DNA from: Eledone cirrhosa
Taxonomy: Eukaryota
Direction: 5' to 3'
DNA: 64,000 bases
NCBI GenBank assembly: GCA_964016885.1
Contig: OZ024743.1
Coordinates: 362,390,001 to 362,454,000 of the forward strand
Positions 6,448-59,317 of this stretch are shown here, in pieces. Under the pieces are notes generated by a model. The model was not told the DNA's origin and made no database searches. It saw only the letters and a program-made list of their open reading frames with translations. Each line of letters opens with the position of its first letter. Position 1 is the first letter of the stretch. The translations under genes were made by a program, and so were the position numbers.

Positions 6448-6454
<7 letters not shown>
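6272..6454. repeat. TA-flanked fold-back PLE-like terminus
   Basis: Near-perfect palindrome 6332-6454; same family at 30795-30913 in the opposite orientation. Confidence 0.7.
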
Positions 6455-6535
<81 letters not shown>

Positions 6536-6538
<3 letters not shown>

Positions 6539-7065
6539 CTACCTGCCTGCAGTATTTTTCTCTATATTTTATTACATATATTTACCACTGCGATTCTGTG
6601 TTTTTTTCTCTCTCTCTCTTACTGCTCCCCCAGTCTCTCTGTTTCTCCCCCTCTGTCATGTCAGTTAACTCTTCCTCACACTTTCACTCACTCACTGTTT
6701 CTCTTCTCTTCATTTCATCCTGTACACCACGAAGGCTATTTTTCTCTCTTCTCAGAGGGCCAGAGTTCGTGTCAGGTCTGTTTTCTAGAAGCTCATATAT
6801 TCACCTAGCTTATGCTAAACAGAATAATTTTGAAGCTTGTTTCTTTCCCCTACGGTTAGCTATACTCTGTGTTGTTCTCCTGTCTCACTCGCTTTGCGCG
6901 TTTCAATTGTCCTAATAACTTATTTTGGTTATTATTGCACCGACGTGAGGTATATGATTTTTAATGCAATGAAATATCGATGATCGTCGGCAAATCACTG
7001 ATGAGGGACTCATTTTATTACATGTTATCCATGTGCTACCTGCAGTATTTTTCTCTATATTTTAT

Positions 7066-7075
<10 letters not shown>
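6536..7075 (+). mobile_element. About 500-bp non-coding element with terminal direct repeat, in TA/TG microsatellite
   Basis: gtgctacctg..cagtatttttctctatattttatta occurs at 6536 and again at 7033. Confidence 0.6.
6909..7009 (+). ncRNA. Candidate rearranged (non-circularly permuted) hammerhead with k-turn, copy 1
   Basis: Six helices plus AUA site, GAAA and CUGAUGA in non-standard order; covaries with 59216-59317. Confidence 0.6.
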
Positions 7076-7125
<50 letters not shown>

Positions 7126-7130
<5 letters not shown>

Positions 7131-7429
7131 CGACGTGGTTAGTCAGTCTAGTCACTACTTCTGATCAGATCCGAGAATAGCCCTTAGAAGGACTGTTATC
7201 GCGAGGCAGAGGCGAGGAACAACGATACGCGAGTTGACTCTGCCAAATGTCGACTGGCGAAGTGTTTGGAACCACACTATTTATACAAAAATAATCGTTT
7301 GATGTTTAGCCGATGTGTAGGCGTTTATTCTGGTAGGTTTTAAGGATTCTTTTGTTTCACGTTGAGGTAGCTAGCTAACAGGTAGATGGCGCTGTATATT
7401 TCGCAGATGTTATTTCCGGTGGCTGTACA
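7126..7429 (-). repeat. 3' LTR, about 190 bp shorter than the 5' LTR
   Basis: tgtagcgacgtggttagtc..ggctgtaca; adjacent minus-strand PPT ggcagggggataa. Confidence 0.9.
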
Positions 7430-8468
7430 TTATCCCCCTGCCAGATCTTTTGAACAACAAAAGAGCGAAATATCGTATAGTAATGGGCCAGTGGTGCATT
7501 TGTCATGACAATAGCCGCAGGAGGGTCCAGCACGTTGTGAAATTTTGTGATCATCGAGTACAGGACAGAGTCGATGTAGAGATGATATGGCAAGATGTGT
7601 GTGTCAGGAAGAGAAAAAAGAAATAAACTATAAAATGACTTTGACCAGATTTATGCAGGCGTGATGAATGAGCCTGTTGCAATTTGGGTTGAGCTGCCTG
7701 TGAATTGCGTGACAAAAAGTCTAACTGGGCAGTGAAGATAACCGTAATGTGTGAACTGAATGGCCGTAAGCATGCTGCCTAAAAGTAACAGTTTGCTCCA
7801 TCACATATGACTTGAGCGAATGCATGTGGTAAAAAAAAAATAGCGAGGCATTCTCGAGCTATTGAGTGACTGTGTACGTGAAAAAAGAAGGTCAATGTTT
7901 TGAGGATGCGATTTGTGAAATGCGTGATCAAAGAGAAAACATTTTGTAGTGTAAGAGTTAGAGGGACACAAATATCTATTTCTCAGTGTATGAACTAAAA
8001 GGTGAAACAAACGTGGTTTTGTAGTGTGCATGAAAAACAGGATATGTACACGCCTTGTATGTATATAAAAATTATGGCAATTACACAATCAATGTTACAG
8101 AACAAGAAAAATATAAATTTTTGCAAAACAAGAGAGTGAAGAAAAAAAAAACATGTTATACACAATAATATACACAATGTATGTTCTTTAGTGTTTGTAA
8201 TAAATAATGTTCATAATAAATAATGTTCTTCGTGACATGAGCACATGGTCACTAAAAATTACAATTGTTCAAGCAGAAAGTTCATTGTATTTGAAACTGG
8301 AAATAGTAAACACAAGAAAAATGGAAATGTTTTGCACGAAGAATGATTAAGAAATGGCGAATGATTAAGAAATGGCGAATCTCAGAGCTTGATAAACTCT
8401 TCGTCCGTCTCTTGGTTAGCTGCGATCATGTATTGCGTTCAGCTGGATTCGGGACAGGGCGTCGGCTG

Positions 8469-10406: not shown

Positions 10407-10902
10407 TGTAGCGACGTGGTTAGTCAATCTAGTCACTACTTCTGATCAGATCCGAGAATAGCCCTTAGAAGGATTGTTATCGCATACGGTCTGATCAGAT
10501 CTGAAGATAGCCCTTAAAAGGACTGTTGTCGCATATAGCCCTTAAAAGAACTGTTGAGGATGGACAGACGAAAGCACAAATTGAAAGGACGAAGCAAGGC
10601 GAGATGTAAATTCGATCAGCTATTTATTTTCACATGAAGCGACGATACGAGGTACAAGGCGTGTGAGTGACAAACGTGGCAGAGGCGAGGAACAACGATA
10701 CGCGAGTTGACTCTGCCAAATGTCGACTGCTGAAGTGTTTGGAACCACTCTATTTATACAGAAATAATCGTTTGATGTTTAGCCGATGTGTAGGCGTTTA
10801 TTCTGGTAGGTTTTAAGGATTCTTTTGTTTCACGTTGAGGTAGCTAGCTAACAGGTAGATGGCGCTGTATATTTCACAGATCTTATTTCCGGTGGCTGTA
10901 CA
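10407..10902 (-). repeat. 5' LTR
   Basis: Matches 7126-7429 plus an extra segment carrying repeated tagcccttaaaag units. Confidence 0.9.
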
Positions 10903-10912
10903 TATATATATA

Positions 10913-11645
10913 TAAACGGAAAAAATGAAACGAAATTTCATTTCCCACTCTTAGTACTGGTGTTACTTAAATATAAGTATGTATACGTACATACATATAT
11001 GTATACAGACGTACAGTAGTATGTATATATATATACATACATGCACACATATATATATGTACGTATGGATTCACCAAACATTTATTATAATGCTCGGTGT
11101 GTTTGTAAACAAACATCCCGTATAAAGCCGCAGTGTCTAGCAACCACCGTTGCTCGTTTGTTCAACACTAACAAAGGAACGCTGTACTAGTTTCAAGCTT
11201 GTTAGCTATCGTCAGCAACGTATACCTTCCTGCCAGATTGTTGAACGTTCGAAAGTATATACTTTCATTATGCATATCAACGGCTGAGCAGCCCAATTTG
11301 CATATCGAGTGTGTTAATCGGCCGGGTGCACCGAAAACGATAAACGGAAAAAAATGAAACGAAATTTCATTTCCCACTCTTAGTATGGCTGTTACTTAAA
11401 TATAAGTATGTATACGTACATACATATATGTATACAGACGTACAGTAGTATGTATATATATATACATACATGCACACATATATATATCTACGTATGGATT
11501 CACCAAACATTTATTATAATGCTCGGTGTGTTTGTAAACAAACATACCGTATAAAGCCACAGTATCTAGCAACACCGAGCATTATAATAAATGTTTGGTG
11601 AATCCATATGTACATATATATATATATGTGTGCATGTATGTATAT
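10913..11645 (-). repeat. 428-bp tandem unit (about 1.6 copies) plus terminal fold-back, HHR-bearing
   Basis: taaacggaaaaaatgaaacg at 10913 and 11341; homologous to the 28.7-30.2 kb array. Confidence 0.8.
11179..11221 (-). ncRNA. Type I HHR
   Basis: acgttg CTGACGA t-agctaacaagct-t GAAA ctag TA cagcgt. Confidence 0.8.
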
Positions 11646-24481: not shown

Positions 24482-24571
<90 letters not shown>

Positions 24572-24578
<7 letters not shown>

Positions 24579-26655
24579 CGTAAAATAAGAACATTTTTTA
24601 AAAAAATTAACTTACTTACTTAAATTTTCACTCCAACTAATTAGTTTCTGCAATGGGATAAAGACAGTTACGTAATGAACTGTTGAGAATTTCTTTGCGT
24701 CATCAGGGAGATCTATTCTCAGCCAAGTCTCCAGGCAGTGCGCGGACACTGGGGACTCATATAAAAATAATAATAATTCGGTAATTGGAACAGCTATCGA
24801 GGACTGGATTCCAGGCACTGAAAATTCTCACTGCCACTGGTCATATGGCCGATTCTAAAGAATCAATCACGTGACACAGAGGCTAGTCAGTAGGAATGGG
24901 ATGGTAAGATGACAGACGCCTACTAACACCCCCAAACAAATTTAGAAGTGGTTTTGGCAGGTTTGCTCGACAAATCAGTGATTTGGAGATAAATATAGAT
25001 AATTTAATATATCTACTAACATAAGCGCACAGATGTACGCTAATGCCAGCAAATACACAGGTTATGTCATAGTACCTAGGTGGTTCAATGCAGGAGGATG
25101 CTGAACAATAATATAAAAGACGTAAAATAAGAAAAATTTTAAAAAATTAACTTACTTAAATGTTCACTCCAACTAATTAGTTTCTGCAATGGGATAAAGA
25201 CAGTTACGTAATGAACTGTTGAGAATTTCATTGCGTCATCAGGGAGATCTATTCTCAGCCAAGTCTCCAGGCAATGCGCGGACACTGGGGACTCATATAA
25301 AAATAATAATAATTCGGTAAATGGAACAGCTATCGAGGACTTAGCGTACATCTGTGCGCTTATGTTAGTAGATATATTAAATTATCTATATTTATCTCCA
25401 AATCACTGATTTGTCGAGCAAACCTGCCAAAACCACTTCTAATTTTTTGGGGGGGTGTTAGTAGGCGTTTGTCATCTTTAATAATAATAATAATTCGGTA
25501 AATGGAACAGCTATCGAGGACTGCATTCCAGGCACTGAAAGTTCTCACTGCCACTGGTCATATGGCCGATTCTAAAGAATCAATCACGTGACACAGAGGC
25601 TAGTCAGTAGGAATGGGATGGTAAGATGACAGACGCCTACTAACACCCCCAAAAAAATTTAGAAGTGGTTTTGGCAGGTTTGCTCGACAAATCAGTGATT
25701 TGGAGATAAATATAGATGATTTAATATATCTACTAACATAAGCGCACAGATGTACGCTAAGTCCTCGATAGCTGTTCCATTTACCGAATTATTATTATTT
25801 TTATATGAGTCCCCAGTGTCCGCGCATTGCCTGGAGACTTGGCTGAGAATAGATCTCCCTGATGACGCAATGAAATTCTCAACAGTTCATTACGTAACTG
25901 TCTTTATCCCATTGCAGAAACTAATTAGTTGGAGTGAAAATTTAAGTAAGTAAGTTAATTTTTTTTTTTTATTTTCTTATTTTACGTCTTTTATATTATT
26001 GTTCTGCATCCTCCTGCATTGAATCACCTAAGTACTATGACATAACCTGTGTATTTGCTGGCATTAGCGTACATCTGTGCGCTTATGTTAGTAGATATAT
26101 TAAATTATCTATATTTATCTCCAAATCACTGATTTGTCGAGCAAACCTGCCAAAACCACTTCTAAATTTGTTTGGGGGTGTTAGTAGGCGTCTGTCATCT
26201 TACCATCCCATTCCTACTGACTAGCCTCTGTGTCACGTGATTGATTCTTTAGAATCGGCCATATGACCAGTGGCAGTGAGAATTTTCAGTGCCTGGAATC
26301 CAGTCCTCGATAGCTGTTCCATTTACCGAATTATTATTATTTTTATATGAGTCCCGAGTGTCCGCGCATTGCCTGGAGACTTGGCTGAGAATAGACCTCC
26401 CTGATGACGCAATTAAATTCTCAACAGTTCATTACGTAACTGTCTTTATCCCATTGCAGAAACTAATTAGTTGGAGTGAAAATTTAAGTAAGTAAGTTAA
26501 TTTTTTTAAAAAATTTTCTTATTTTACGTCTTTTATATTATTGTTCTGCATCCTCCTGCATTGAACCACCTAGGTACTATGACATAACCTGTGTATTTGC
26601 TGGCATTAGCGTACATCTGTGCGCTTACGTTAGTAGATATATTAAATTATCTATA
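24572..26655. repeat. Palindromic array of about 540-bp units with four type I HHRs
   Basis: HHRs at 24631-24710 (-), 25167-25246 (-), 25855-25934 (+), 26397-26476 (+): ctcc CTGATGA c-gcaatg..cattgc-a GAAA ctaattag TT ggag. Confidence 0.85.
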
Positions 26656-26665
26656 TATATATATA

Positions 26666-26767
<102 letters not shown>

Positions 26768-28673: not shown

Positions 28674-30201
28674 ACTGTACGTCTGTATACATATATGTAT
28701 GTACGTATACATGCATACTTACATTTAAGTAAGTGCCATACTAAGAGTGAGAAATGAAATTTCGTTTTCATTTTGTTTCAATTTATCGTTTTCGGTATGC
28801 CTGACCGATTTAACTCACTCAATATGCAAATTAGGCTGCTCAGCCGTTAATTTTCATAAGGAAAGTATATACTTTCGAACGTTCAACTATCTGGCAGATG
28901 GGTAAACGGTGCTGATGATAGCTAACAAGCTTGAAACTAGTACATCGTTCCTGTGTCAGTGTTGAACAAAAAGGTGACGTGGTTGCCTTAACACCGTATG
29001 GCATAAATTCAGGCTGTTCAGTTTGTTTACAAACGAACAAAGCGACGTTATAATAAGCGCCGCTAAACTGATACGTGCATATATGTATGTGTACCTGTAT
29101 GCATATGTATGTATATATGTATATATATATATATATGTGCATGCTACTGTACGTCTGTATACATATATGTATGTACGTATACATGCATACTTACATTTAA
29201 GTAAGTGCCATACTAAGAGTGAGAAATGAAATTTCGTTTTCATTTTGTTTCAATTTATCGTTTTCGGTATGCCTGACCGATTTAACTCACTCAATATGCA
29301 AATTAGGCTGCTCAGCCGTTAATTTTCATAAGGAAAGTATATACTTTCGAACGTTCAACTATCTGGCAGATGGGTAAACGGTGCTGATGATAGCTAACAA
29401 GCTTGAAACTAGTACATCGTTCCTGAGTCAGTGTTGAACAAAAAGGTGACGTGGTTGCCTTAACACCGTATGGCATAAATTCAGGCTGTTCAGTTTGTTT
29501 ACAAACGAACAAAACGACGTTATAATAAGCGCCGCTAAACTGATACGTGCATATATGTATGTGTACCTGTATGCATATGTATGTATATATGTATATATAT
29601 ATATATATATGTGCATGCTACTGTACGTCTGTATACATATATGTATGTACGTATACATGCATACTTACATTTAAGTAAGTGCCATACTAAGAGTGAGAAA
29701 TGAAATTTCGTTTTCATTTTGTTTCAATTTATCGTTTTCGGTATGCCTGACCGATTTAACTCACTCAATATGCAAATTAGGCTGCTCAGCCGTTAATTTT
29801 CATAAGGAAAGTATATACTTTCGAACGTTCAACTATCTGGCAGATGGGTAAACGGTGCTGATGATAGCTAACAAGCTTGAAACTAGTACATCGTTCCTGT
29901 GTCAGTGTTGAACAAAAAGGTGACGTGGTTGCCTTAACACCGTATGGCATAAATTCAGCTGTTCAGTTTGTTTACAAACGAACAAAGCGACGTTATAATA
30001 AGCGCCGCTAAACTGATACGTGCATATATGTATGTGTACCTGTATGCATATGTATGTATATATGTATATATATATATATATGTGCATGCTACTGTACGTC
30101 TGTATACATATATGTATGTACGTATACATGCATACTTACATTTAAGTAAGTGCCATACTAAGAGTGAGAAATGAAATTTCGTTTTCATTTTGTTTCAATT
30201 T
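28674..30201 (+). repeat. Tandem array of 472-474-bp units (about 3.2 copies), one HHR per unit
   Basis: HHRs at 28905-28949, 29377-29421, 29851-29895: aacggtg CTGATGA t-agctaacaagct-t GAAA ctag TA catcgtt. Confidence 0.9.
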
Positions 30202-30231
30202 ATATATATATAAATATATATATATATATAA

Positions 30232-34843: not shown

Positions 34844-34875
34844 TATATATATATATATATATAGGAACCAGTAAG

Positions 34876-34969
34876 ACCCCGACAGCGGAGCTCAAGCCGT
34901 TTCGACGGCTAATTCTGGACTAAATGAAAATTTATCCTGGTATTTAAATAGCCGATCTTCTCAAGGGGT
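34876..34969 (-). ncRNA. Type I HHR, U3/A8 variant (sense 3' end of the PLE)
   Basis: Reverse complement of 39990-40083 with one substitution. Confidence 0.7.
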
Positions 34970-36086
34970 AATTCCATATATGGTCAAAGTGATTGTCAAA
35001 AATCAGTAGTAATTCTGTGGTTGCAAATTAGTAGGGGAGATGGTAGCTAAACCTGCCAGTAGGAGAAAGAGGGGAGGGGTGGAGTAGACCCAATCAGGCG
35101 TTTGTAGTGCCAGCTACAGCTGGGCATGAGGTCAAAGAAGATACAGGGGAGGGGGAGGGGGAGGAAGTCGGAACGGTAGGTAGAACAATGGGGGGTAGAA
35201 ATATATAGGAAAGAAAAAATACTGAGAGTGAAGAAAAGCAAATAAGTGTAAAGAAAAGCAAATGAGTGTAAAGAAAAAAGTAAAGTAAATTAAATTCTAC
35301 GACCTAGGTCTCTAGCTATTGTTAGGCTAGAGTAAATAAATAAAGAAAGAAAGAAAGAAGTAAAGAAAGAAATAAAGAAATAAGTAAAAGAACTAGGTGG
35401 GACGGGATAGGCGAGGACCCTTTTAAGAGGTATAAGTACGTAAATGATACGGTGACGGGTCAACAAAAGGGGCCAAAATACTAAAGAGACTACCACGAAA
35501 TAAACAATAAAGGTTTCCATCCCGGGCACAATTCCAGCAACCACCCAGTGCAGCAAAGTGAACTAATACGAGATAATAATTCTGAGTCCCGAGAAAAATA
35601 TATACTAATGCTAACTCTAAAAGATCTAAAACAAGCTACATGAAAGTTCGTACGAAGTAAAGGTAGAATACGGAAAAATAAATTCAGAATCCACCCCGCC
35701 CAAAAGAAAAGCGAAGAAAGAAATACTGAAACGAAAAAATAAGGCATAAGTGCCACTAAGAAATATAGAGGGCACAGAGAATAGTGGGAGCGGTCGGAAA
35801 AAGGGGACAAGTATCCGGGGTCTAAACCAACTGCTATAAAGGGCGGAGTCCGCCAAATCTATCCTAGACTAGGGGAGGGGGTGGGGGTACTAAGGCTACA
35901 ATGGGCCAAAGGGCAGCCTCGGGTGGGCGAGAAAAGACGCCGACAAAGGAGAAGAGCTGGGGTAGAACGACTAAGGAGAGAGGGGGGAAGGAAGGAAATA
36001 AAGGAAGCGATAAAAGAATACAAAGAAGATCTTATGTCTCCCTTGGCAAGCAGGGGTTACCCATTGCAAAATCGGCAAGTGGGGTG

Positions 36087-38256
36087 TTATAGCCCTAGTC
36101 TACCCCCCCCCCCCGGGTCATTATGGGGTTTGAGGGCGAGGTAAGTCCTACGCAATCTATGTTTACATGCAGTAACCAGTTCATCTTTCTTGTTTAGGAG
36201 TTGGTCCGTCGAAAACAGCATTTGTAAAGTTTCCTCCGAGCATAAATTGCACGGACGGCGTCCTCCCGTGTAAGAATTGGCTCTGGACAGTAATCTCCAA
36301 GTGAGGTCATAGGTGATGTTGTTGTCCTTGAGGTCCCATATGTGGCCCGAGAGTGTAGTGGCGTGACGCCGGGCCGGGTTTCGGAAGGTATGTCTATGTT
36401 GGTATAGCCGGGTCTTGAAGTCACATGCGGTAAGTCCTATATAGGCTTTGTTGGAGGTATCCGTCCTCACGTTGCACTGGTAGATCACATTACGGTCTCT
36501 GCATCTATTGTCGAGTGGGCAAATAGATCTATCCGGGCAGTTACACCTCCTGGTCGGTTCTCCACTGCTATTTAGGTTATTTCTGCCATCGGGGTTGAGT
36601 TTTTTGTTGTTAGAGGAGACGATGTTTTGTGCGAAGTTTGGTGTAGTGCTGTAAGAGAGTTTGATGGTATTTTTGTTAATTATGTTGTGGTAGCTGTGTT
36701 GTAATGGGAAGTGTTTTTCAATGAGCCTAAAGAATAGTTTCCCGATGGGAGTTGTCACCTCTGCGTTGTGGGGAGGATTGAACCATGTTACATTGCGTGA
36801 GCGGCGGTGTCTCCTGCTGGTTCCGCTAATGGGAGCTGGACAGTAGGATATTTCCTCCCGGAAACCACTCCGCTTGAGGGCCTGGTTGTAATAAGGCGCA
36901 TGTTCATCGAATATCCGCTCATTAGCTGACAAACGGGATATGCGGAGGGAGATGTTTTTGACCAGGTTGTTTGTGATGTTCCTAGGATGGTTTGATCGGC
37001 GGTGGATGTAGTGCAGATTGTCATTAGGTTTCCTGTATGGGTAGTACAGGTCGTTTTCGAGGTCAAGAGTCACGTCCAGGAAGTTTACTCTGGTCAGGGA
37101 CGTTTGTAGGGTTATTTTAAATCCCCAGTCGCGGAAGAATCTGATTAATTGTTTCCGGACCCGATCTGTACTACTGGGGTTGTACCCTTTAAGGGTAAGG
37201 AGCCCATCATCATGGTACAATCCACCACCGAATGCAGGAAACATATCAGTGAGTTTGGCTATTAGGAATAATCCTATAAGATCTGTGACCTCCGCCGAAT
37301 CCGTGGCGCCCATGCTGACGTCGAAGGGTGAGTCGGGAGCTCTTTTTATCCATTTAGAGTCGTCAAAGAGTAAGACTGTCTTCCTGGCGTGGAGGATGAT
37401 TTTTCTTTCCTGGTCGGTGATGGGCACAAGTGTTTCGGCGAAGTCCAAGGCGGCAGTAAGTAGCGGTAAGGTGATTGAAGCATAGTAGCTCTCTATGTCG
37501 AACTGTATGAATTTAGTTTCTCGTTTATCCTCCATATTGCTGAACCAGGAGATTACTTCCTGGGTGTTGACCCATAGGCTAAGTCGGGTGTGTTGCTTGA
37601 CTTTTGGTATCACGCGGTCTAGGATTTTTTTGCTGATTCTCCCTATGTCGGACTTCGTTGGGTTAATAAGCCTGATAGAGGGTTTACGGTCAAAATCGGA
37701 TTTATGGTCCTTCAGTGTGAAGTATGGTGTCCGTTGGTCTAGAGGTTCCGTGCGGTCGGCGACCCCGAGGCTGGAGGTGATTTGTTGTCCATCTCGATTT
37801 ATGTCCTCGATGCAAGAGTGGTTGGCCTTTTTATAGGTGGAGTTTAGGCTGCTCCTGATCAGTGTGGTATCTGTCAGGGTTGACAAAGTATAGGTTCCCA
37901 GTTTTATCCGAATGCACCATGATGTCATTTGTGTTATCATACTCTGTTAGGTTGCTACGGAGTTTTTGTAGGAATCGGTTGTGTCTGGGTTTAAATTTAA
38001 TGTTCTTGACCAGTTGGAAGAGGTCATTCTCGAAGGGTGCGAGCAAGGGGTTCAGGGGCGGAGATTTGTAGGTAATAAATCCGAATCTCTCCTTGGTGCC
38101 GAAGTCTTGGTTGTCGCAATATCTGTCATAGAAAAAAGTTCTCCATCTAAGTCTTTTCGCAAATAGATCGATTTTTTGCGTGAGCATCCGAAGGTAAAGT
38201 TTTTTCGGTGGGATTGGGATGTTCTTGGTAGAGAAGTCAATGTTGTGTTTTCGCAT
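36087..38256 (-). CDS. PLE polyprotein RT + GIY-YIG; one frameshift near 37862, YHDD at the catalytic motif
   Basis: MRKHNIDFSTKNIPIP..KRLRW; QFDIESYY; MGATDSAE; LYHDDG; FLDV; CNCPDRSICPLDNRC; VIY..YIG; CNLC; KDELVTACKH. Confidence 0.85.
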
Positions 38257-39989
38257 GGTGCGGGTGAAATGAATTGAGCTTAGCGCAAAAGTCTGGATAC
38301 GGCGTGGTAGGGTCGGAAAGTGCTCTACTACGGGGGTAGGAGCTAGATAACGAAGGAAATGTGGTAAGGAACCAGGTGGACCATAACGCACCAAAGTACT
38401 CAATACTTGAGGTAGTAGAGTGGGTAATAGGAACCAGTAAGACCCCGACAGCTGAGCTCAAGCCGTTTCGTAATGTGATCTACCAGTGCAACGTGAGGAC
38501 GGATACCTCCAACAAAGCCTATATAGGACTTACCGCATGTGACTTCAAGACCCGGCTATACCAACATAGACATACCTTCCGAAACCCGGCCCGGCGTCAC
38601 GCCACTACACTCTCGGGCCACATATGGGACCTCAAGGACAACAACATCACCTATGATCTCACTTGGAGATTACTGTCCAGAGCCAATTCTTACACGGGAG
38701 GACGCCGTCCGTGCAATTTATGCTCGGAGGAAACTTTACAAATGCTGTTTTCGACGGACCAACTCTTAAACAAGAAAGATGAACTGGTTACTGCATGTAA
38801 ACATAGATTGCGTAGGACTTACCTCGCCCTCAAACTCCATAATGACCCGGGGGGGTAGACTAGGGCTATAACACCCCACTTGCCGATTTTGCAATGGGTA
38901 ACCCCTGCTTGCCAAGGGAGACATAAGATCTTCTTTGTATTCTTTTATCGCTTCCTTTATTTCCTTCCTTCCCCCCTCTCTCCTTAGTCGTTCTACCCCA
39001 GCTCTTCTCCTTTGTCGGCGTCTTTTCTCGCCCACCCGAGGCTGCCCTTTGGCCCATTGTAGCCTTAGTACCCCCACCCCCTCCCCTAGTCTAGGATAGA
39101 TTTGGCGGACTCCGCCCTTTATAGCAGTTGGTTTAGACCCCGGATACTTGTCCCCTTTTTCCGACCGCTCCCACTATTCTCTGTGCCCTCTATATTTCTT
39201 AGTGGCACTTATGCCTTATTTTTTCGTTTCAGTATTTCTTTCTTCGCTTTTCTTTTGGGCGGGGTGGATTCTGAATTTATTTTTCCGTATTCTACCTTTA
39301 CTTCGTACGAACTTTCATGTAGCTTGTTTTAGATCTTTTAGAGTTAGCATTAGTATATATTTTTCTCGGGACTCAGAATTATTATCTCGTATTAGTTCAC
39401 TTTGCTGCACTGGGTGGTTGCTGGAATTGTGCCCGGGATGGAAACCTTTATTGTTTATTTCGTGGTAGTCTCTTTAGTATTTTGGCCCCTTTTGTTGACC
39501 CGTCACCGTATCATTTACGTACTTATACCTCTTAAAAGGGTCCTCGCCTATCCCGTCCCACCTAGTTCTTTTACTTATTTCGTTATTTCTTTCTTTACTT
39601 CTTTCTTTCTTTATTTATTTATTTACTCTAGCCTAACAATAGCTAGAGACCTAGGTCGTAGAATTTAATTTACTTTACTTTTTTCTTTACACTCATTTGT
39701 TTTTCTTTACACTTATTTGCTTTTCTTCACTCTCAGTATTTTTTCTTTCCTATATATTTCTACCCCCCATTGTTCTACCTACAATTCCGACTTCCTCCCC
39801 CTCCCCCTCCCCTGTATCTTCTTTGACCTCATGCCCAGCTGTAGCTGGCACTACAAACGCCTGATTGGGTCTACTCCACCCCCTCCCCTCTTTCTCCTAC
39901 TGGCAGGTTTAGGTACCATCTCCCCTACTAATTTGCAACCACAGAATTACTACTGATTTTTGACAATCACTTTGACCATATATGGAATT

Positions 39990-40083
39990 ACCCCTTGAGA
40001 AGATCGGCTATTTAAATACCAGGATAAATTTTCATTTAGTCCAGAATTAGCCGTCGAAACGGCTTGAGCTCAGCTGTCGGGGT
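39990..40083 (+). ncRNA. Type I HHR, U3/A8 variant
   Basis: acccc TTGAGAA ga-t-cggcta..tagccg-tc GAAA cggct tgagctc agctg TC ggggt. Confidence 0.75.
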
Positions 40084-40174
40084 CTTACTGGTTCCTATTA
40101 CCCACTCTACTACCTCAAGTATTGAGTACTTTGGTGCGTTATGGTCCACCTGGTTCCTTACCACATTTCCTTCG

Positions 40175-40361: not shown

Positions 40362-41176
40362 CATATATATATATGTATATGTGTGTGTGTGGGTGCGCGT
40401 GTGTGAGTGTGTGTGTTTGTGAATGTGTCTGTTGACATTTGGAATATAGCTTAAGAGAAACTTGAAGATAATGGTATGATAGGCACTCAATATTTTGAAC
40501 TGGTCTATAGAATTATCTAGGCCTTTGTCACTCTAAGTAGAACCTTAAAGAATTAGCTTTTAAAGAATTTCCCTTTTCTTTAAATCAATCAACCATGACT
40601 GACCTCCAACGACCTTATAGACACCTGAAATATAGGCATTGTTAACTTAAGAGAAATTTAAAAATAAGGAGTGGCACCCCATTCTGAACTTGTTTATAGA
40701 ATTCTTTCTGCCTTTGTTACTCTAAATATAAATTATAGCTTTAAAGAATTAGCTTTTAATGAATTCCCTTTTCTATCAACCAATGACCTCTACCCATCCC
40801 ACTCCCTACCCTCTCCTACCACCTGAAGAGGCCTATAAATACCATATTTATTTTTTGATACCCAGATTCGTGATGATTTCTAAAGAATGAAACAGTTCTA
40901 GTCCTTACTCCACCCACCGCCACCCCTACACGCCCCACAACCTTCCACCTCTTGTTTATCTTCATGTTTATTTTATTTTCTATTTGTACCCCTTCCACCG
41001 TTTCCCCCCCCCCCCCCACCTTTTTCTCTAAATGTCTCTCCCCCACTCCCCCACACACCCTCGGAACTCTCTTCCCACCCACTTTTCTCCTAAAGAAGGG
41101 CTTATGCCCGAAACGTCGTTCTCCACCACACACTCCCCTCTACCCATCTCCCACCACCACCCCCACTACAAGAACT

Positions 41177-44100
41177 ATGGATCAGAGATATCTCAAAAGA
41201 AGAAAGTAAATCAAGAAAGTTATGGCAGCAGAAACAATTATTTCTTGACAAATATGCTGCAAATTACGGTAAAGACTCTGGAACTCTGAGAAAAAGCATT
41301 AAAAGTGGACAATCTCGCCAACACAACATACGCCAGAACATGTGCCAACACAAACACTCACCTTACCTTGAATCAAAGAAGACCTACGGTAAGAACTCTT
41401 CACTTTTTCTACAAAAACACCCTAATGCACACAACATGAACAAAACGGACAAACATGATAGATATTCCTTTGACCAGACCATGAGAAGTAGAAAAACCAG
41501 CAGATCATTCTCAAGATCTCAACGGAGACTACCCACAAGGAACGGGGAAAAAACGTAGAATAACCAGATCACTCTCAAGATCTCAACAGAGATTACCCAC
41601 AAGAAACTGGGCGAAAAAACGATCTAAACCTGAAAGCAAACCTAGGTCATTTCCCCAAATTGTTAAAAATAATGCTAACAAGAAATGGAAAAATAATATA
41701 CATAATACCATAACGAAAAACATAACGAAACCAAATATAATATCACGACGAAAAGTCCATCAAGCAAACACCAACAGGAATATAAATCCTGAACAGAGAA
41801 AAATCCATTTTTTAACGGCAGGACAACAAAAACCGGAAAAAGAAAAACTCCAGGAGGAAACATACCCAAAACAACTGTACACGTAGATCCTAAAATAATT
41901 AATTTATCCAAAAGAGATCTTGACAATCATGAAATGCAAATTCTGTCAAAAGGACTGAAATTCACACCGACTCCAACAGTCAACCATAAAGAACTGAAGG
42001 AGGATACCCAAGAATTCTGTTGAAAATTACGTCTTGTAGAATTCTTCGCTGATAAAAGTAATGAGTGATGAATCACTAGTAAAGAATAAATCAAATTTCA
42101 CTCCGCCAAAAGGAAGAAATATCTATCTCGACCAATACATTGACATCCTGTCTAAATTTCCTCTTAGACGTAATACTAATGTCAGGCCAAACATTAACAA
42201 ATCAGAAATGTCTGCACTTAAACGTATACAAAATGATAAAACAATAATAATTAAACAAGCAAATAAAGGGGGTGCAGTTGTTATAATGGATGCTGAATAC
42301 TACAAAGATTTGGTTGAGGAACAACTGAAAGACACAACATTCTATCATGAAATACCGTCAAATATAGACCACAACATCATGAAGAAGATCAACAACCTGA
42401 CTTCAAAATATCATAACTCACTTACTGATAAGGAAAGAGACTACATCACCAATTTTGAGCCAAAACCCAGCAACCTGTATGGCCTACCAAAAGTTCATAA
42501 GTCAAAAGAAATACAACTGGCAGTAAAAGAACAAAACAGTGAGTACATAAAATTACTACACCCAAAAGACTTAAAACTTAGACTTATTATAGCTGGTCCA
42601 ACATGCCCTACCCACCGTCTAAGCAATTTTGTTGACATTATTTTGAAACCACTATGTATTCATATACCCAGTTTCATCCGGGATGATATCGACTTCCTGT
42701 CCCATCTTCCCAAAACCACGGAAACGAATTCACTTCTACTTAGTTTTGATGTGGTAAGCCTTTACACCAACATTACACATGATTTAGGAATAAATGCGGT
42801 TAAATACTGGGTGGAAAAACATAGAGAAGTGATTCCCACCAGATTCACAGTGCCATTTATATTAGATGCAGTCAAACTTGTTCTGGAAAACAACACTTTC
42901 TTCTTCAATGGAAAGAATTACATGCAAATTAGAAGCACAGCGATGGGAACGAAGTTTGCTCCCGTTTACGCGAACTCTGTAATGGGATACTTAGAACAAC
43001 TCTACCAAGAAATAGAGGAAATATATAGTACTGACTTTAGAAAGTACATTGAAAAATCTTGGAAGAGATACCTTGACGACTGTTTCATCATCTGGACAGA
43101 ACCTCTAGATACTCTGGATGAGTTAAATATCCTCCTGAATAACCTACACCCATCTCTCCAATTCACAAAAGAGATGAGTAGTACCAAATTACCATTCCTA
43201 GATATAATGGTAATCAAAACGACACCACCATTACCACGGATATATATTATAAACACACAGACACCCATCAATATCTGAATTTTAAGTCATGCCATCCACC
43301 TCATACAAAACGCAACATCCCATACTGCCTAGCTAGAAGAATTTGTACCATTGTAGAAGATACGAATACCAGGAACAAGCGCCTAACAGAACTAAGAGAA
43401 TTTTTGCTCAAACAAAAATACCCATCTCTACTTATAGAAAATGGCATACAGCGGGTTATAAAAATACCTATACAACAACTTAGGACAACCCAAAGAAGAA
43501 GAAACCAAGAACTGGTCATACCATTTATAATGACACACAAGCCATGTCACCAGAATATCTTCAACACTGCCAAAGCAAACCTACCGATCATTGCTCAAAG
43601 TAATGAATTAAAAGGCTTAATCACAGATCGATCTTTGACTCTTAGTAAAAGACAGCCGAAAAATTTGAAGCAATTACTAACAAAAGCAAAGTTTGACCTT
43701 AACAACAAAGACCAATCATTCACTGTATCTAAATGCAATGATAGTCGATGTGGCACATGTCAATCCATACACACTGGTCAATATATGAAAACAAAAACTG
43801 GAAAAATATTCCCAAATGCAAATATGAACTTCAAAAGCAGAAATCTAATTTACTGCATTAAATGCCCGAATTGTGAAGAGCTATGTCGGTCAAACTGGAA
43901 ATGCACTATCGGAACGTGCATGAGTGCACCGATAGCAAATCAGAGACCCACATGTCCGTCAGATACCCCTGAGTAACCATCTAGCAACATGTGCATGTGG
44001 TCAGAGAATATTTATAATATTTCCATTCTACAAGTTACACAGCCCAAGTGAAATCAAGAGAAAAATCAAAGAAAATAATTTTATTGATAAATTCCAACCC

Positions 44101-44627
44101 AAGCTAAATGAACACTAATAATGGGGTATTAATCCTACTATGACTATGACCACTAACAACAACAACAACAATAATAATAATAAAAGTGATGTTGATGGTG
44201 ATGATTACTAGAAAATGCTATTTTCATCATTTCTAAAAATAGAAAAACAATTGATGCTTTGCATAGGGTCAACTAGTAGTCGTTAGACATGCTCAACCAA
44301 CCGTGACGCCTAAACCAATCAGCTTTAGTAATCCAGTGAAACAACACACCGATTAGTCGAAATACAGTTTGCAAGATTTAGCATTCTGTAGCCACTTTTC
44401 ACTGTATATAAGGCACACAATTTACCCATCTCATTACAGTTAAAAATTGCAAACTTGACTGTCACCACAAAATATGAACCTGAAGAGTGCGAAAGCATGA
44501 AAGTACTTGTTCAATTAACACTTAACATTTAATATTCTACCATACTATTTCATTCTAATAACATTATAAATTTTAAAGGATTGTAAATAAAACGAGTAAA
44601 TCAGACAAAGTTGCAATTCCTTTTATT

Positions 44628-44659: not shown

Positions 44660-45349
44660 TTATTCAAAATGTTAACAAATGAAAAATATTCACATAATCA
44701 AAATATATACTTTATTATACATATTTCACAGGTACTATGTTGTTTAAGTTTAAGATGGTAATATGGATGGAACAAGAGAAGAACTCCTTCATCAGCTGTT
44801 AACTGCAGATCATAGATGTTTTGGCGCTTAAAACAGGACATCGAAAGCGATCAGCAGCGCGCCGAAGGCGTCTTATCGATCAAAAGGCCACGAGGGAAAG
44901 AAAAGAAAAAAGAGTGAGGAGAGAGGAAGCAAGAGGGAAAAAACGAAGTAAACAAACCGAATGGAGGGAGGACTGAGGACAATGGAACATTCAAGTGAGT
45001 AACCGAGAAAAAAATAGAATAAGTTACAACGAACCAATTAGACTTAAGTCTTGTGGTGCAATAACTAGGAGCGATGTAGTTCCGTGCGATCTCAGCAGAG
45101 CGAAGGTAGAGAGAGAGAGACGGAGAGACCGGAAGTGAGAGGGAGAAGGGAAAGGGAGATAATCCAAAAGAGTTTTTCGACATGTGTGCAGGAGAGAGGA
45201 AGAAAGAGGAAAAAGGAAAGAGGTAAAAACGAAGATATATATATATATATCTTATCGATCGACATTCGTCAAATCGGACCGAGGAAACAATGTTTCCATT
45301 GGTCTTTCCAATTGCTAATACTATCTATCGGTCGCAACTCCAGGTAGAA

Positions 45350-59215: not shown

Positions 59216-59317
59216 GTCCCAACGACTTTTTTTAGCCGTTGCTCGCACCAACCGGAGGTATATGGTCTTTAAAGCGATGAAATGCCTATGATGGTTGGAA
59301 GATCACTGATGAAGGAC
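59216..59317 (+). ncRNA. Candidate rearranged hammerhead with k-turn, copy 2
   Basis: About 190-bp insert between two (TA)n tracts; compensatory changes relative to 6909-7009. Confidence 0.6.

Follow-up and report, generated by a model that had tools for sequence, protein, structure and literature searches.

Many copies of a small mobile repeat in the genome of Eledone cirrhosa very probably carry a self-cutting hammerhead whose parts are joined in a knotted order, as judged from their sequences. Our preferred description, which we hold with high confidence, is of a hammerhead-type self-cleaving RNA with the non-circular block order S-G-C and a new outer frame, residing on non-autonomous retrozymes of the Penelope-like element (PLE) type. 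The representative described here lies in a 64,000-nucleotide stretch of contig OZ024743.1 (GenBank assembly GCA_964016885.1; hereafter 'the window'), and its component strands are listed in Table 1 together with its carrier repeat and two related motifs.

Table 1. Positions in the window of the motif, its carrier repeat and related motifs
Feature	Positions	Strand	Remarks
(TA)n microsatellite, 5ʹ side of f1 insertion	6451..6529
Family f1 retrozyme-like insertion	6543..7077	+	one 492-bp unit plus 42 bp (6543-6584 recurs as 7036-7077)
Helix E 5ʹ strand, start of staple strand	6909..6912	+	partner 7006-7009; covariation
Hairpin F	6913..6934	+	7 bp (6913-6919/6928-6934); length variable, missing from families f5 and f7
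Helix A 5ʹ strand	6935..6939	+	partner 6965-6969; would substitute for distal stem II
Helix B 5ʹ strand	6940..6945	+	partner 6985-6990; would correspond topologically to the I-II bridging helix of type-SGC RNAs
K-turn non-bulge strand	6946..6948	+	3n, G2n, A1n
Block S	6949..6960	+	stem III strand 6949-6952 (pairs with 6975-6978), U16.1 6953, A17 6954, stem I strand 6955-6960 (pairs with 6992-6997)
Block G	6965..6978	+	helix A 3ʹ strand 6965-6969, U11.1 6970, GAAA 6971-6974, stem III strand 6975-6978
K-turn bulge strand and helix B 3ʹ strand	6979..6990	+	3-nt bulge 6979-6981, G1b 6982, A2b 6983, 3b 6984, B 6985-6990
Block C	6992..7009	+	stem I strand 6992-6997, CUGAUGA 6998-7004 (G5 = 7000), G10.1 7005, E 3ʹ strand 7006-7009
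3ʹ tail running into (TA)n tract	7010..7077	+	f1 and f2 are alike here; reverse transcription probably starts in this region
Third motif, decayed, f4b type	44784..44899	-	G12 changed to A
Second motif, family f2	59216..59317	+	72% identical; 5ʹ-truncated insertion between (TA)n tracts

Read in the 5ʹ to 3ʹ direction, the window copy shows a layout in which the strands E-F-A-B are followed by the blocks S-G-C and then by the 3ʹ strand of helix E. All the strands that the original prediction had named (E, F, A, B, III and I, plus GAAA and CUGAUGA) were recovered at their sites and in their order; its stem lengths needed adjustment, in that hairpin F has 7 bp and helix A can have 5 bp. With F at this length, helices E, F and A abut without unpaired bases, and a 4-nt linker ties helix A to stem I. 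The hammerhead core sequences CUGANGA, GAAA and UH are all present, the first two of which also served as anchors in our searches. The GAAA at 6971 is the sole one in the 492-bp unit, as had been anticipated, which rules out a canonical hammerhead completed by a GAAA further downstream. Likewise, the order of parts fits none of types I, II or III. Most likely the motif works like a hammerhead, one that lies outside these three types and that has the block order of type SGC without having its stem II. The predicted cut falls within block S, between 6954 and 6955. In the second motif of the window, compensatory changes are found in F, A, B, III and I.

For the comparison of genomic copies, which had been proposed as the way to check the motif, 14 families were each represented by one real copy and aligned with MAFFT, with no editing afterwards. 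Because copies were picked near their family consensus and the families are related, the resulting figures are not probabilities, and this kinship makes the shuffle controls overstate significance: 85.7% of 456 cells pair, as against 67.6 ± 1.4% after shuffling, with none of 500 shuffles reaching as high, and controls in which the partner strand was slid give 33-44%. Changes on both sides occur in 26 of 33 pairs, including all six pairs of stem I, four of the five pairs of stem III and five of the six pairs of helix B. An alignment of 25 copies is 79.4% paired (62.1% shuffled), and RNAalifold recovers B and III unaided from aligned copies. Covariation across families extends to all seven helices, the lowest scores being those of E and F, since families f5 and f7 lack F and are misaligned there. 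On these comparative grounds the motif is a real, strongly covarying RNA, far beyond chance.

Conservation of the core was evaluated in 177 distinct anchored copies, 117 of which were kept because they have at least 8 of the 10 pairs in stems I and III, whereas the other 60 (truncated, decayed, register-shifted or chance) fell short and were set aside. The anchors GAAA, GA, CUGANGA and often 11.1 were part of the searches, such that their conservation is not independent. The bases at the cleavage site, U16.1 and H17, obey the NUH rule in 109 of the 117 copies. Covariation and the conserved core and NUH bases, observed in many families, thus support the rearranged, pseudoknotted hammerhead together with its stems, its k-turn and the site after A6954 that had been predicted for it.

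Several properties of the single window sequence count against a ribozyme. Its folding stability is ordinary (z-score -1.14; 23 of 200 shuffles as good), its predicted minimum-energy fold buries CUGAUGA and the 3ʹ strand of E in a competing hairpin, and stem I has little stability, its duplex reaching -2.3 kcal/mol. Pair probabilities within the 101-nt motif are 0.94-0.97 for E, 0.27-0.72 for F, 0.40-0.55 for B and 0.38 for III, and they are below 0.1 for A and 0 for I, the latter two values being affected by the inability of the folding program to draw the knotted stems jointly with B and III. No hammerhead occurs in the Rfam listing for the window, which shows 150 of 169 matches, or among the three matches to a 2-kb tandem array; microRNA and snoRNA matches were rejected as microsatellite or chance.

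The ordinary z-score is what would be expected if the match were fortuitous, or if a k-turn RNA of the box C/D-like kind had been mistaken for a hammerhead. The string UGAUGA, which resembles box C, points in the same direction, as does a snR57 match of low significance (E 5.4) to the array's opposite strand. Nevertheless, this explanation is exceedingly unlikely, and it is largely refuted by covariation, which extends to the pseudoknotted stems I and A, and by core conservation. Searches of the genome with three core-spacing patterns gave 279, 108 and 1,718 matches, as opposed to 0, 1 and 5 for reversed controls, and the 108-match pattern made one base shorter gave 2 (control 0). Stems I and III abut correctly at the UH site in every family. 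By comparison, chance matches do not fold: none of 50 in viral contigs (48 loci) has at least 8 of 10 pairs in stems I and III, and none of 40 loci in metagenome contigs reaches 13 of 16 pairs.

The carrier of the window copy is a non-coding insertion that is pyrimidine-rich on the + strand and flanked on both sides by (TA)n tracts. A first look through the 3.0-Gb genome gave 1,459 candidates for this repeat, and the 40 that were scored are all 99-100% identical. Among 30 loci of this family, f1, some of which overlap, one motif is present in 11, two in 15 and four in 4, the last being a single array. Their 5ʹ ends are ragged, i.e. 5ʹ-truncated, and tandem copies are present. The 3ʹ ends reach (TA)n 51-66 nt beyond the motif in 27 of 30 loci, as do those of family f2 at 47-59 nt in 28 of 30. 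Inverted partners are present at 19 of 220 loci, where the same core flank can be found in both orientations. Given its non-coding tandem units, each a few hundred bp long, its one ribozyme motif per unit and its many dispersed copies, this 492-bp, 5ʹ-truncated, (TA)n-flanked repeat is a retrozyme-like element. Three contig sets of one sample span the f1 unit with a peak over the motif, which is not a measure of expression; their variants include a compensatory change at 6942/6988 and two pair-keeping changes, along with one at 6985 that would by itself break a pair. At some loci (L069/L070, L137, L143, L078, L084 and L126), an inverted partial copy joins inside the ribozyme to create long fold-backs. 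The sequence just 3ʹ of the microsatellite that follows the window insertion (7126-7430) appears again 3.3 kb downstream at 10407-10903, in two pieces with 97% identity.

Other families carry the same fold on different units. Family f2 has a 616-bp unit and 1,848 candidates in the genome, and units are 426-706 bp long in the seven other families measured, all of which have the fold in common. BLAST likeness between families is concentrated on the motif and the tail, and families f3, f5 and f7 keep the fold although they have no BLAST match to f1. Since the sets of 279 and 1,718 pattern matches are disjoint and are without typical f1 or f2 copies, about 2,000 copies is a floor.

Stem II departs from that of an ordinary hammerhead in that its flanks pair with a separate 5ʹ strand, as revealed by covariation. 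Positions 10.1 and 11.1 form a standard pair in 112 of the 117 copies (A-U in 72, G-U in 27, G-C in 12 and U-A in 1), after which the junction begins; families f11 and f12 have switched to G-C. The window copy has G-U and no continuation. This counts against a ribozyme because in all published SGC and CSG ribozymes described in the accessible sections of Eckert et al. 2023 (PMC10085705), stem II is a genuine helix that includes G10.1-C11.1. The original proposal of a stem II consisting of a single pair holds in this genome and seems not to hold for most Naiad versions of the motif, discussed below, in which no pairing between 10.1 and 11.1 could be drawn by eye; this suggests that the register there is branch-migrated. 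In those versions the two positions seem to pair with the staple strand instead, and thus the junction probably has two registers.

The internal loop between stem III and helix B of the window copy matches the k-turn consensus, with a 3-nt bulge followed by G1b-A1n and A2b-G2n between two helices. A1n is kept in 112 of 117 copies and 2n is mostly G or U, whereas 1b and 2b were fixed by the search pattern. An A-U combination at 2b-2n is a known variant that folds as a k-turn, according to the part of PMC2790904 available. The k-turn sequence foreseen at this loop is thus supported in the window copy and, more widely, at the A1n base. Not every member has it: in family f4 the loop is reduced to a simple bulge of 3 nt, which counts against the preferred description, and Naiads other than those of Octopus have different elbows. 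Compared with the standard k-turns and Kt-23 treated in the accessible portions of PMC5061560 and PMC2790904, the bulge length and the G-A plus A-G (or A-U) pairs are alike, whereas the candidate kink found here is located at the end of stem III inside a natural hammerhead.

The three-dimensional fold, cleavage, circularisation and mobilisation that we infer from the copy structure, covariation and core conservation, together with Naiad motifs recognised by eye, are as follows. The chain would enter as the staple strand E-F-A, with E gripping the strand that leaves CUGAUGA and A gripping the strand that enters GAAA, with the result that a four-way junction of E, F, A and the core arm would replace stem II. 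Helix A would stack beneath the G12 side of the core, where it acts as stem II, and would run on into B; both strands of B connect, via the k-turn, with stem III at its far end. K-turns have an included angle of roughly 50 degrees (PMC5061560, section available), and the kink would fold B back to tie together the ends of stem I and A. In effect, the RNA would be a type-SGC ribozyme that the k-turn makes into a ring and that is opened again immediately after 10.1, both ends exiting through helix E. Tandem transcripts would be cut after A6954 in every unit to yield 492-nt linear monomers, and a host ligase could circularise these, in the way demonstrated for type I retrozymes. The monomers might then be copied into (TA)n tracts by a Penelope-like reverse transcriptase that starts at a fixed point some 50-60 nt 3ʹ of the motif; for one PLE, the accessible part of PMC11167929 demonstrates that initiation is internal and that targets are AT-rich. 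The motif probably descends from a 3ʹ UTR ribozyme of Naiad elements.

Every covarying helix can also be drawn nested if the RNA acts as a type III (S-C-G) dimer without knots that takes S and C from one unit and G and the staple from the next, and covariation is blind to whether pairing occurs within or between units. Tandem copies are common, and for some of the hammerheads in vertebrate retrozymes the dimer is the most effective form (PMC7229834, portion available). However, the pair probabilities show that E, F, B and III form locally within a single unit, and only one motif is present in the window copy, in 11 of 30 f1 loci and in 23 of 30 f2 loci. The nested dimer is less likely because these local helices form first and because one-motif insertions are so numerous. 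Naiad units, moreover, are 3.4-4.4 kb long (PMC8557442), and single-molecule cleavage has been published for SGC RNAs (PMC10085705), as far as the accessible text of both sources goes. We regard the dimer as very unlikely and retain the single-unit S-G-C fold.

The precedent for this fold, and for the non-circular permutations that were mentioned in the original prediction, is type SGC. In the available sections of Eckert et al. (PMC10085705), HRIMA-1 and other SGC variants have a 3-nt linker between stems I and II and cleave in vitro as single molecules. There, SGC examples come from metatranscriptomes and CSG examples from metagenomes, and known genomes gave only one GCS candidate. The S-G-C order, the full catalytic core and the short linker between stem I and the stem II arm are shared with the RNAs described here, and their I-II bridging helix is matched by helix B, whose connectivity and covariation (five of six pairs) suggest equivalence. 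Published SGC RNAs have an uninterrupted stem II, a CGAAA sequence and chain ends outside blocks S and C (accessible text of PMC10085705). In contrast, the RNAs described here have block C cut after 10.1, which the six-order scheme of that source, in its accessible text, assumes to be impossible, a staple strand that makes a junction, and a k-turn through which both strands of the bridging helix run into stem III. Relative to this precedent, three features are new: stem II is split, the elbow is a k-turn, and the carrier is an animal retroelement. The descriptor given in the available part of the same paper calls for CGAAA and a stem II of a G-C pair plus 2-6 bp, and would therefore miss the window motif.

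Animal non-LTR retrozymes, as presented in the accessible parts of PMC7229834 and bioRxiv 10.64898/2026.07.22.740005, likewise are short, low-GC, non-coding units that occur as dispersed monomers and tandem copies with one ribozyme per unit and a Penelope-like link. They differ in that they are defined by, and were searched for with, type I hammerheads, whereas the window motif has the S-G-C order and its RNA circles are part of our proposal. Ordinary retrozymes probably coexist with permuted ones in the same genome, as tandem units of about 470-510 bp, each with a hammerhead core in canonical (type I-like) order, were seen at L310:8068-9553 (+) and in L317 (-). A literature search in which subscription papers were poorly covered yielded neither a description of this motif nor any mention of PLEs or retrozymes with permuted hammerheads, and no natural hammerhead said to contain a k-turn. 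The words 'kink' and 'k-turn' occur zero times in the accessible part of the Eckert et al. supplement (PMC10085705).

Anatomically, the repeat also resembles PLE insertions and especially Naiads, since (TA)n targets, 5ʹ truncation and both tandem and inverted copies are features of the latter (PMC8557442, available sections), although the repeats in the window encode no protein. Craig et al. 2021 report, in the same accessible text (PMC8557442), Naiads without a canonical hammerhead that carry only the flags 'HHR_core' and 'HHR_half_core'. For 35 of the 54 published Naiad consensi we inspected a 3ʹ-terminal stretch of about 330-600 nt, with pairings judged by eye and names assigned by file order. 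The layout E-F-A-B-S-G-C-E' was recognised by eye in 9 of the 35 ends (Beroe, Clytia-3, three near-identical Acropora, Morbakka-2, two Octopus and Euprymna). Thus, the same wiring seems to sit in a class reported to be hammerhead-less. Again by eye, the two Octopus elements have the k-turn and the same 23-nt spacing from GAAA to CUGAUGA as the window motif, whereas the elbow of the others is occupied by bulges, by a hairpin or by a larger insertion; stem I of the Beroe element has only 2 bp, and helix A of the Euprymna element is degenerate.

Clean type-CSG hammerheads were identified by eye in five more of the 35 ends (Nippostrongylus 1-3, Haemonchus and Stegodyphus mimosarum), one further passage in part 13 of the Naiad file also appears to be type CSG, and the Limulus end has the S-G-C order in a different frame. 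In the parts viewed, 20 of the 35 ends have no hammerhead core, including all six bivalve ends inspected, which weighs against the preferred description, and two of these 20 (Naiad-1_Movir and Naiad-4_Chem) contain twister-like strings. A conserved motif at the bivalve, hemichordate and Clytia Naiad ends is one that we take to be possibly HDV-like. This additional structured motif is shared by several of those ends (PMC8557442 file S5).

A fold that is real and yet hardly, or no longer, catalytic could act as a signal for a Penelope-like reverse transcriptase or a k-turn protein, or could cleave only with the assistance of protein. Such a role would suit a split stem II that departs from all tested hammerheads, and it has parallels in the Anolis PLE hammerhead, which is protein-assisted and dispensable for insertion in vitro (PMC11167929), and in the many k-turns that fold only with L7Ae-type proteins (PMC5061560), to judge from the accessible parts of these papers. 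On the other hand, the adherence to the NUH rule and the frequency of the 10.1-11.1 pair among the kept copies, both noted above, are at odds with a loss of catalysis, and the type-CSG cores or twister-like strings at the same UTR position of other Naiads suggest that cleavage is the selected function. An RNA that is non-catalytic or cleaves only with protein is consequently very unlikely, and self-cleavage remains our preferred reading.

On balance, we favour a wider interpretation in which permuted hammerheads are the 'missing' Naiad ribozymes across animals, taking the split-stem-II S-G-C form that lies outside the six-order scheme in a ctenophore, cnidarians and cephalopods, and the CSG form in nematodes and a spider. 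The thousands of genomic repeats would then represent a new, Naiad-derived class of retrozymes, and the k-turn would solve the geometric puzzle of the SGC fold and might give the host 15.5K/Snu13 protein control over cleavage. Permuted hammerheads have so far come almost exclusively from unassigned metatranscriptome and metagenome contigs. If active, the present RNAs would place them in animal chromosomes at thousands of copies, add a connectivity barred by the six-permutation scheme, account for the seeming absence of hammerheads from Naiad elements, and imply that a whole class has been overlooked wherever ribozymes and retrozymes were counted with type I-III descriptors. In addition, Eckert et al. 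left open how a I-II bridging helix can sometimes join the far end of stem III without a spacer even though the two are far apart in a crystal structure (PMC10085705, available text), and the k-turn offers a concrete answer.

The enzyme that could move these repeats was sought in the same genome. No Naiad ORF (an N-terminal GIY-YIG domain followed by a reverse transcriptase) was found with three short patterns, a motif scan and 50 GIY-YIG loci, an approach of low sensitivity whose negative outcome weighs against the preferred description. The three Naiad-derived patterns gave 0, 0 and 4 matches, the last as against 32 for controls, and two of the four candidates were examined and proved to be the antisense strand of a LINE. 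The 50 GIY-YIG loci comprised the 30 best-scoring and 20 others chosen from 150 matches; wherever they have a long ORF, the endonuclease is C-terminal, and they were rejected as partners as the motif copies nearby looked incidental. A Neptune-type ORF beside an f1 dimer was also dismissed as the autonomous partner, for it is on the opposite strand and has no sequence in common with the unit. Long open frames of Neptune-type PLEs are present at L300, L301 and L302 (938, 844 and 1,096 codons, respectively), and these are candidates for the enzyme that moves the young repeats.

Further repetitive sequences were encountered in the window. A decayed Neptune-type PLE, with reverse transcriptase followed by GIY-YIG, occupies 41030-44120 (+) and is 39-58% identical in pieces to the L269 ORF, and minimal type I hammerhead-like strings occur near 41090 and 44480. 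Nested direct and inverted copies, each a few hundred bp long, 95-98% identical, each with CUGAUGA and bordered by (TA)n, lie at 24569-26668 and are possibly another PLE-type repeat. At 28674-30203, a 472-bp tandem repeat of 3.2 copies with 99% matches adjoins (TA)n; it is related to 10903-11502 in the opposite orientation and does not match the permuted-core pattern. Finally, inverted arms of about 1.6 kb with 99% identity (34861-36494 and 38469-40098) surround 2 kb of sequence, an arrangement that is possibly a young DNA transposon.
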